Positions 61,531-63,749 of a stretch of DNA of 64,000 nucleotides are shown one piece after another; position 1 is the stretch's first letter, and the number at the start of each line of letters is the position of its first letter. The notes beneath the pieces are model-generated. The model was not told the origin of the DNA, ran no database searches, and saw nothing but the letters and a program-made list of their open reading frames with translations. The DNA is taken from the NCBI GenBank assembly GCA_038087875.1, contig CM075996.1, positions 2,916,001 to 2,980,000 on the forward strand. Direction: 5' to 3'. The DNA is from Malacoraja senta (lineage: Eukaryota). Both the position numbers and the translations under genes were made by a program.

Positions 61531-61801
61531 GATCATCAAACTAGGGATTGACACAAAAAGCTGGAGTAGCTCAGCGGGTCCGGCAGCATCTCTGGAGAAA
61601 AAGGAATAGGTGATGATTCGGGTGGAGATGCTTCAGAGGTCTGATGCGAGGGTCTTGACCTGAAACGTCGCTTATTCCTTCTCTCCAGAGAAGCTGCCTG
61701 ACCCGCTGAGTTACTCCAGCTTGTTGTATCCATCTTGGGTAAACGTACACTTTAATTTGATACAAGGTTGGTTGTTGGAGAGCGTGACTGAAGTTATGTA
61801 C

Positions 61802-61991
61802 CTGGGTCAGTGTCAAAGTCGACAGACTGGCTCCATTCACTCCAGATTCCACAGTAGCTGTATTCGTCTTTGCATTTGCTAGGTTCCACCGTGGCCCGCA
61901 TCCTGACCCTGTACTGGCTGGAAGGATCCAGGGAATTTTCAGGCAGGTTGAATTTTTTGTTGCCGGATTGAATTGCCCACGTCTTGTTTTC
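61802..61991 (-). CDS. CSF2RB: CSF2RB-like cytokine receptor exon, FN3 domain 4 second half with WSXWS (extends to TAA at 61794 if unspliced)
   Basis: ENKTWAIQSGNKKFNLPENSLDPSSQYRVRMRATVEPSKCKDEYSYCGIWSEWSQSVDFDTDP; acceptor TTTCCTCCCGCTAG, phase 0 in, phase 1 out; resembles human beta-c LEPSTRY..YNGIWSEWS (recalled). Confidence 0.8.
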
Positions 61992-62129
61992 CTAGCGGGA
62001 GGAAATATAACAACGTTGATCTCACACTGTCCTTTAAGGTTAGTTTCAGCTTTAAAGAGGCAGGGCGGAAACACGGCCTTCGTACCCACCGAGTCCGCGC
62101 CCCGCCCAGCGATCCCCGCACACCAACGC

Positions 62130-62305
62130 TACACACAACACACACACACACACACACACACACACACACACACACACACACACACACACACACACACACA
62201 CACACACACACACACACACACACACACACACACACACACACACACACACACACACACACACACACACACACACACACACACACACACACACACACACACA
62301 CACAC
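62130..62305. repeat. (CA)n microsatellite, ~170 bp, expanded inside a V-SINE
   Basis: Direct observation. Confidence 0.98.
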
Positions 62306-62421
62306 AATGTACAAACTCCGTGCAGACAAATACCCGTGGTCAGGATCGAACCCGGGTCTCTGGCGCTTTAATCACTGTAAAGCAGCAACTCCACTGCTGC
62401 GTCACCCTATGTGTCACTTGC

Positions 62422-62570
62422 CTCCCAAGGATGATCAACTTTCTTGTACCTGACTTGATACTCCAAGTCATTATTATTATTATATCCACTTTTGATGGAT
62501 TCCCAGTGCAGTTGCAATCTTCCATCAGGTAACTTCTCCATGGTCAAGTTGGATGGAGGGTATGGTTTAA
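62422..62570 (-). CDS. CSF2RB: CSF2RB-like exon, FN3 domain 4 first half
   Basis: (I)KPYPPSNLTMEKLPDGRLQLHWESIKSGYNNNNDLEYQVRYKKVDHPWE; acceptor TTTGTTCGTTAG; 149 nt, phase 1 to 0; donor AG|GCAAGT. Confidence 0.8.
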
Positions 62571-63314
62571 CTAACGAACAAAAGAAAACAAAAATATATA
62601 AGCAGGAGGCACAAGAATGCACACTGATGCAGAATTAGTCATAGAGGCACAGTGGTGGTGAATCTGTGGAATTCATGGCCGCAGAAGGCTGTGGAGGCCA
62701 GTCAATGGGTATTGTTAAGGCAGAGACAGATAGATTCTTGATTATTACGGGTGTCAGGGGTTAAGGGGGAGAGGGCAGGAGAATGGGGTTAGGATGGAGA
62801 GATAAATCAGCCATGATTGAATGGCGGAGTAGACTTGATGAGCCGAATGGTCTAATTCTGCTCCTATCGCTTATGAACTCATGAGTCACACAGCATCGGA
62901 AACTGGGCCCCTGACCCGTCTTGCCCATGCTGACCAAGGTGCCAGGTGCTCAATTGTCCTAGTGTCAGATAGTGTTGATGTGCAGGTATCACTGGTCGGT
63001 GCGGACCCGGTGGGCTGAAGGGCCTGTGTCCGCGCTGTATCACTAAACTACACTAAACTCAACTAATCTCAAGGACGTGCGGGTTTGTAGGTTAATTGTT
63101 CCTCTGTAAAATTGCCCCGGGTAGTCGGGAGAAGATGAGAAAGTGGGACAACATAGAGCTAGGGTGAACGGGTGATCGATGGTCAGCTCGATGGGCCAAA
63201 GGGCCTGTTTCCAGGTTGTATCTCTAAACCAAACTAAAGGTTGGGAGTTAGCCATTCTTGATATCCCTGCTAATGACCAGAAGTATTATAGGAATATAAC
63301 ACTTGCAATAGTGT

Positions 63315-63570
63315 AATAGAAATCTGAGGGGTAACCTTTTCACACAGAGGGTGGTGGGTGTTTGGAACGAGCTGCCAGAGGAGGTAGTTGAGGCAGGGAC
63401 TATCCCAACATTTAAGAAACAGTTGGACAGGTACACGGATAGCACAGGTTTGGAGGGACACGGACCAAACGCAGGCAGGTGGGACTAGTGTAGATGGGAC
63501 ATGTTGGCCGGTGTGGGCAAGTTGGGCCGAAGGGCCTGTTTCCACGCTCTGTCACTCTATGACTCTGAGT
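63315..63570 (+). mobile_element. CR1 3' fragment (intronic)
   Basis: NLFTQRVVGVWNELPEEVV.. and tail. Confidence 0.85.
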
Positions 63571-63591
63571 GGATCGAAGAACAGAACTCAC

Positions 63592-63749
63592 TATTTCTGT
63601 AAGGGTGAAATGGCAGCGATGGTTTCACGAGTTGGAGGGACACCTCGTACTCCTCAAACTCCGCTCGGTCGCGGACATGTATGTTGCACCCATGAACCGT
63701 GAAGTTTGGGTATTCACGGGGTATCACGGTCGAATTGCACACCTGGGTC
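63592..63749 (-). CDS. CSF2RB: CSF2RB-like exon, FN3 domain 3 second half
   Basis: TQVCNSTVIPREYPNFTVHGCNIHVRDRAEFEEYEVSLQLVKPSLPFHPYRN; acceptor TTTCTCTTTACCAG, donor A|GTGAGT; 158 nt, phase 2 to 1; resembles beta-c [22 protein letters not shown] (recalled). Confidence 0.78.

Follow-up and report, generated by a model that had tools for sequence, protein, structure and literature searches.

Soluble IL-5 receptor alpha and GM-CSF receptor alpha contrast with the beta-common chain (CSF2RB), whose affinity for its cytokines is poor unless an alpha chain takes part. Tandem duplication at a beta-common locus has a precedent in mouse Csf2rb2, which is a full membrane receptor. This beta-common relative (IL-3 receptor class 2 beta; PDB 4qqv) has the same ectodomain and, unlike the mouse case, no second ectodomain copy was found in the skate genome studied here. 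Concerning routes to soluble receptors, the main text of PMC5928244 describes intronic polyadenylation just before the transmembrane (TM) exon as common in cytokine receptors, and reports 220 human isoforms from 175 genes that lose the TM segment, many of them belonging to cytokine and growth-factor receptors; CSF2RB is absent from that main text (0 matches), and the supplement could list it. The CSF2RB family and soluble receptor forms made before the TM exon are, in kind, already known.

The window analyzed here is a stretch of 64,000 nucleotides of the skate Malacoraja senta (assembly GCA_038087875.1, contig CM075996.1, positions 2,916,001 to 2,980,000 of the forward strand). The system closest to its receptor locus is CSF2RB of other skates (Amblyraja radiata, XP_032868986.1; Leucoraja erinacea, XP_055519311.1; R. 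longicauda, XP_078286758.1), which has the same four-domain ectodomain, exon for exon; the M. senta ectodomain is 80.6, 80.6, and 75.6% identical to these, respectively, and WSEWS is common to all. In contrast to these genes, that of M. senta is without the TM exon, Box1, and about 370 post-ectodomain residues in the assembly, has its last 99 codons upstream of the gene, and carries short insertions in domain 4. Little-skate-like products derived from Logan end after the same exon via intron 9 and have no TM segment, like the form predicted for M. senta; their tail has 15 residues as against 2. The predicted form also resembles the soluble receptors made by intronic polyadenylation (PMC5928244) in position and predicted outcome, namely signal peptide, whole ectodomain, and short intronic tail. 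The finding as originally posed, a beta-common-like receptor that stops right after WSEWS, most likely reflects an artefact of assembly in a gene that is itself ordinary; real receptor loss has a small chance.

Ectodomain exons, copy number, and neighboring genes

Three phase-compatible exons were assigned to beta-common-like domains in the preliminary description, and these proved to be exons 7–9 of a CSF2RB orthologue, mutually in phase on the minus strand (Table 1). When the sequence 200 kb past the window was fetched, six further exons (1–6) were obtained; positions there are called extended, i.e., window numbering continued, and the G000:C20 position is the extended position plus 2916000. 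On sequence comparison, the locus is a single CSF2RB (beta-common) orthologue of the skate. Exon 9 is 71–73% identical to CSF2RB of A. radiata and L. erinacea, and the best PDB matches of the ectodomain and of exon 9 are beta-common chains. In a midpoint-rooted ectodomain tree of 20 rows, all chondrichthyan, M. senta lies inside the skate clade (100/100) as sister to Amblyraja plus Leucoraja (99/98), on a branch of length 0.11.

The nine ectodomain exons joined together form an open frame of 457 aa without a stop or frameshift, having WSAWS and WSEWS and two tandem cytokine-receptor modules made up of four FnIII-type domains. Its N-terminus is signal-peptide-like, judging from identity to the skate N-terminus and hydropathy, and over 26 residues, exon 1 has 100% identity to its counterparts in A. 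radiata and L. erinacea. A hydrophobic segment is absent from the frame (best 19-residue mean of 1.06, against 2.87 in A. radiata). Each of the 13 cysteines is matched in A. radiata, which has a 14th; A. radiata cysteine 364 is histidine in M. senta. Domain 4 is the ectodomain part most diverged from other skates: in exon 8, the loop that precedes the conserved LEY and is predicted to contact cytokine contains an Asn-rich insertion of 4 residues, and exon 9 has a 2-residue insertion before WSEWS. The exon 8 donor is of the GC type (GAG/GCAAGT, 62421-62416), which places a GC-AG intron inside domain 4. Tyrosines are found at places matching, in chained alignments, human Y39, Y365, and Y421, the human numbers being put on the sequence where we presume them to fall. 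These three are site-2 aromatic residues of human beta-common (PMC4966837). About 6 kb above the ATG exon, a unique minus-strand stretch (L003:8050-8300) has GATA- and ETS-like words and a donor-like ATG/GTGAGA; judged by eye, CSF2RB may have its promoter and a non-coding first exon here.

In the genome, every ectodomain exon is matched once only, and further paralogues upstream of the window, for which a count had been suggested, were not found. The PF21460 profile matches the CSF2RB locus and one place in another receptor cluster, on C5. Self-BLAST gave no second ectodomain copy within 264 kb, and no second exon-9 version was seen at 80% likeness or higher among contigs of run X19, which show presence, not absence. 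We rejected the weak C5 matches (32–36% identity) as CSF2RB paralogues; they resemble another class I receptor cluster. A class I cytokine-receptor exon cluster on C5 (G000:C5:71586579-71823834) contains two copies that look identical, run in opposite directions, and are separated by about 237 kb.

The downstream neighbor is a casein kinase 1 gene, and the upstream neighbors are a P450 gene, an intact class I receptor gene, a trypsin-domain gene, and a BTB_2 gene, the latter three in that order 70–170 kb upstream. From domains and order, we read these three as probable IL2RB, TMPRSS6, and KCTD17; the IL2RB-like gene retains its TM and cytoplasmic exons in the same assembly. CSF2RB is presumably close to this trio in mammals. 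The order IL2RB-TMPRSS6-KCTD17 is reported in chicken, human, and mouse (PMC3360756). Two observations on these neighbors can be added. The cytochrome P450 gene (G000:C20:2999895-3018300, L003-L005; plus strand, CYP2-like by eye) is located between the ectodomain exons and the displaced 3' remnant described below, and a contig end lies about 90 bp from the start of its first exon. Inside the TMPRSS6-like gene, a unit of about 2.5 kb is tandemly repeated about five times with about 98% identity (G000:C20:3099648-3111642, L013-L015).

Table 1. Features of the M. senta CSF2RB region, in window positions unless otherwise indicated
Feature	Position	Strand	Remark
Casein kinase 1 epsilon/delta type, first coding exon	10672..10759	-	Downstream neighbor of CSF2RB
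Scaffold gap of 200 N	58809..59008	.	Size unmeasured; TM, Box1, and cytoplasmic exons expected here
Decayed L1-type LINE	59009..61504	-	Sense orientation in intron 9; cut by gap
High-copy short repeat directly past ATTAAA	61560..61745	.	Borders approximate; contig pile-up, self-BLAST cover
ATTAAA, candidate intronic poly(A) signal	61751..61756	-	Without clear U-rich element at expected distance
Intron 9 start, donor GTACAT	61794..61801	-	Read-through gives G-T and TAA stop
CSF2RB coding exon 9	61802..61991	-	Second half of domain 4, with WSEWS
CSF2RB coding exon 8	62422..62570	-	First half of domain 4; GC donor
CSF2RB coding exon 7	63592..63749	-	Second half of domain 3; tblastn 76–78% to skate CSF2RB; AG/GT borders
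CSF2RB exons 1–6	G000:C20:2981244-2992016 (extended 65244-76016)		Outside window
CSF2RB last 99 codons of cytoplasmic exon (remnant)	G000:C20:3055535-3055831 (extended 139831-139535)	same strand	On another contig

Intron 9 and the predicted soluble form

Reading through the intron-9 donor gives a product ending ...FDTDP-G-T-TAA, with its stop at 61796-61794, and the ATTAAA follows at +46 of the intron; the coordinates given in the preliminary description hold. Stop plus ATTAAA is no special signature: intron 8 has the same pattern (4 codons and then a stop, with ATTAAA at +50), A[AT]TAAA occurs within 50 nt of a random regional point 4.6% of the time, and the intron-9 pattern is not above this background. 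Twelve A[AT]TAAA hexamers are present in the visible part of intron 9, with those in the L1 lying from +791 on. The donor (CAG/GTACAT) had been called weak. By an approximate matrix, its score of 2.65 is the 8th of the gene's 9 donors, but it is close to that of intron 7 (2.78) and above that of intron 2 (-1.79), both of which must be spliced.

Sequence-run contigs cover parts of this boundary. The repeat past the ATTAAA has very high pile-up in all four runs. One 450-base contig of X19, a run that may be the source sample and hence not independent of the assembly, equals 61705-62125 with 0 differences, so that the bases there are probably not a consensus error. One contig of X1, a run from another organism that is RNA at a guess, matches the window from 61993 as far as 61802 exactly, and its next 84 letters differ from the window; this break fits splicing at the intron-9 donor. 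None of the contigs from X1, X5, and X6, all of other organisms, covers the first bases of intron 9, and they are uninformative on read-through in M. senta.

Thirteen Logan-derived proteins, encoded by public contigs that are likely RNA, come from three skate clusters; the clusters of 19 other proteins are listed without Logan members. Twelve of the 13 (P0001, P0004, P0007, P0008, P0010-P0012, and P0014-P0018) end in a read-through tail after exon 9, with FDTNQ followed by 15 residues and no TM segment, and one is the 913-aa membrane form, these contig counts not being expression levels and unspliced RNA being of the same appearance. The membrane form stands beside them (P0013, P0003, P0009). 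The read-through proteins are little-skate-like, one being 96% identical to the L. erinacea record; 11 of the 12 start at MSDV without a signal peptide, possibly as a start-calling or contig-edge effect. Two of them were put in the tree, where they group with the Leucoraja membrane form and do not make a clade of their own; this points to an isoform and not to an old paralogue. The 11 long ones have 31 variable columns, 15 common to two or more (alignment A1), which is high for one gene; several copies, balancing selection, or mosaic contigs may account for it.

The 2-residue M. senta tail (GT) is unrelated to the 15-residue skate tail, and three back-translated motifs of the latter gave 0 matches; therefore conservation of the soluble form is not demonstrated. 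No ectodomain-ending isoform is present among the NCBI proteins listed in the clusters for the two skates, and none of the three chondrichthyan matches of 235–749 aa is an annotated ectodomain-only protein. We gave no weight to ectodomain-length proteins of Latimeria (442 aa) and Coilia (440 aa), which are gene predictions. In the open-access literature, we found no report of a soluble beta-common in cartilaginous fish. A signal peptide, an intact ectodomain, and an in-frame intronic stop before the TM exon are all present in the M. senta gene, and because 12 of the 13 Logan-derived proteins end at the same donor, a soluble isoform by intron-9 read-through is a plausible prediction for this species. 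Of the two proposals made earlier, soluble isoform or secreted paralogue, the former thus keeps its plausibility and the latter, with one match per exon, is unsupported.

Missing exons, scaffold gap, and displaced remnant

By tblastn, no TM, Box1, or cytoplasmic exon was found on either strand of the window, and a minus-strand scan for hydrophobic exons was likewise negative, in agreement with the preliminary description. The search it suggested against the assembly had a mixed outcome. A 169-aa query (TM and Box1 plus the first cytoplasmic residues) gave 0 matches among 3 candidates, while the full-length skate protein matches ten places, i.e., the nine ectodomain exons and residues 813–913, leaving residues 445–812 (about 370 residues) unmatched. 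The tenth place contains the last 99 codons, 78 kb upstream on another contig.

This remnant is joined abruptly at its 5' end to a SINE-like piece inside one gap-free contig, and it has no stop after HHIACS. Because it is 83.8% identical to A. radiata and L. erinacea, takes the same tree position as the ectodomain, sister to Amblyraja plus Leucoraja, and has a short branch (0.067), it belongs to this one orthologous gene or to a very recent copy of it. A decayed second copy of its end is located 1.4 kb on (about 3054033-3054150, with a duplicate near 3046274-3046390). As to mobile elements around it, the first bases of the SINE-like element after the remnant may have supplied the original stop, and the older decayed copy carries a SINE of its own.

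The gap in the window is located 2.8 kb below exon 9, a distance within the gene's other intron lengths (0.4–3.6 kb). The L1 cut by it has a PF03372 domain at 60645-61031 with broken frames, and copies of its family are 88–96% identical over long stretches. Two other copies share about 2.0 kb past the cut point; because these relatives extend further, more than 200 bases are likely missing at the gap. None of this continuation is found across the gap, where the far side opens with satellite, and therefore either the gap is not of 200 bases or the two contigs are not true neighbors. Regarding other repeats, a second, older L1-type element (44260-47952, plus strand) is about 66% identical to the intron-9 copy, and tandem repeats are found at 11366-11883, 42950-43371, 54188-54748, and 58471-58772 (8/25-bp, 22-bp, TG-rich 54-bp, and 98-bp units), the last of which abuts the gap.

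Four gaps of 200 N are present in the first 132 kb examined, two of them at extended 83608 and 131683, and the ectodomain exons are alone on a 24.6-kb contig, which ends inside the L1. The contig end at extended 131681 is equal to 139442, an unmerged overlap of 7343 bases with 8 mismatches; the latter point is about 90 bp below the remnant's end and about 390 bp from its junction. Seen in assembly coordinates, about 7.3 kb are assembled twice around a 200-N gap (G000:C20:3040332-3047681 and 3047883-3055442), the 8 mismatches being mostly 1-base indels, and this is a false duplication or a pair of unmerged haplotypes. From the eight contig ends in 264 kb, we estimate, roughly and after the fact, that the chance of finding a break no more than 400 bp from a chosen point is 2–3%. 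We infer that the break near the remnant is a branch in the assembly graph, at which one 3' flank is entered from two different upstream sequences. When unplaced contigs overlapping the L1 end or the two flanks were looked for, there were none among the best 40 candidates each time.

Readings of the locus and their meaning

We consider it probable that M. senta has an ordinary single CSF2RB, and that the missing exons are not lost and belong to unsequenced DNA of a scaffold that is fragmented and probably mis-ordered; the caveat of the preliminary description, that they could lie in the 58809-59008 gap, has thus become the best-supported reading. The contig with exons 1–9 would end inside the L1, and the rest of the L1, the TM exon, the Box1 exons, and the cytoplasmic exon would have been either left unassembled or purged. 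The contig whose start lies about 90 bp below the position expected for the stop is probably the true continuation of the gene, and the remnant's contig probably carries a deletion allele, a duplicate, or a mis-join. Of the two graph branches into the 3' flank, one would be the remnant and the other, most simply, the intact cytoplasmic exon; the ectodomain contig would then belong above the P450 contig, on the side of the IL2RB-like gene and before reaching it, and the piece linking the two contigs would have been lost or purged. Several observations weigh against this reading: residues 445–812 are seen nowhere in the assembly, no unplaced contig among the best 40 candidates bridges the L1 end or the tested flanks, the remnant's gap-free junction and missing stop look like a real deletion product, and the neighboring receptor keeps its TM and cytoplasmic exons, so that such exons are not lost wholesale.

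The same remnant junction and lost stop keep the rivals alive, the strongest of which, though unlikely, is a rearrangement that split the gene, deleting the middle, leaving the tail beside the IL2RB-like gene, and letting the ectodomain only be secreted, with the membrane beta-common lost and a decoy or carrier kept. The genome-wide absence of the missing exons is in its favor, as are the intact nine-exon frame with its signal-peptide exon and no hydrophobic segment, and the single exon-9 version in X19, whose contigs show presence, not absence. It requires at least two events (move and deletion), and the gap is exactly where the exons belong, hiding an estimated 2 kb at least; a contig break is found beside the remnant, and the stop plus ATTAAA is not above background. 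Moreover, the membrane form is kept in relatives: all 16 named chondrichthyan species examined have the TM segment and IP[DN]P. There is only a slim chance that M. senta is without beta-common signalling of the IL-3/IL-5/GM-CSF type, and that a soluble isoform, on this view already abundant in skates, has become the gene's only product.

Less probable again is a gene broken by a recent homozygous deletion or rearrangement and now decaying, whose read-through products would be incidental and functionless. The remnant's stop loss, the divergence of the domain-4 exons with their 4- and 2-residue insertions, and the replacement of cysteine 364 by histidine favor decay, against which stand 457 codons over nine exons without a stop or frameshift, the complete identity of exon 1, and an ectodomain branch that is not long. 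We regard as least probable a dedicated secreted paralogue beside a separate, unassembled full-length CSF2RB: the order of remnant, flank, and ectodomain-only copy is the expected leftover of a tandem duplication and several gene copies could cause the variability of the Logan proteins, but each exon has one genome match (in an incomplete assembly), X19 has no second exon-9 version at the above likeness, the two tree-placed read-through proteins nest with the Leucoraja membrane form, and none of the three matches of 235–749 aa is an annotated ectodomain-only chondrichthyan protein.

With an ordinary gene as the preferred reading, membrane CSF2RB of M. senta would have the role that it has in other sharks and rays, that of a signalling chain shared among IL-5-family cytokines. 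Ligands of this family are described as gene candidates in the elephant shark (PMC4690019; background in PMC13753702). With about an even chance, we also predict a secreted ectodomain from read-through of the intron-9 donor, of the kind that another skate apparently makes. In humans, beta-common forms an intertwined dimer in advance, with the cytokine site built from domain 1 and the other chain's domain 4 (PMC4966837). Because of this preformed, domain-swapped dimer and two-chain site, the most likely effect of a secreted chain would be to weaken signalling through pairs formed with membrane beta-common, and not through capture of cytokine on its own; alternatively, the tail-less chain may join cytokine-alpha-chain complexes without signalling.

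If the preferred reading is true, the locus is an ordinary gene cut by an assembly gap, and the contigs here are probably mis-ordered; the more useful by-product is then the skate contigs that repeatedly encode a beta-common ectodomain ending in intron 9. If the membrane form were truly gone, M. senta would amount to a knockout made by nature, lacking a receptor that each of the 16 relatives checked has kept. In cartilaginous fish, a soluble beta-common of natural origin would offer a brake on IL-5-family signalling that can be put to the test.
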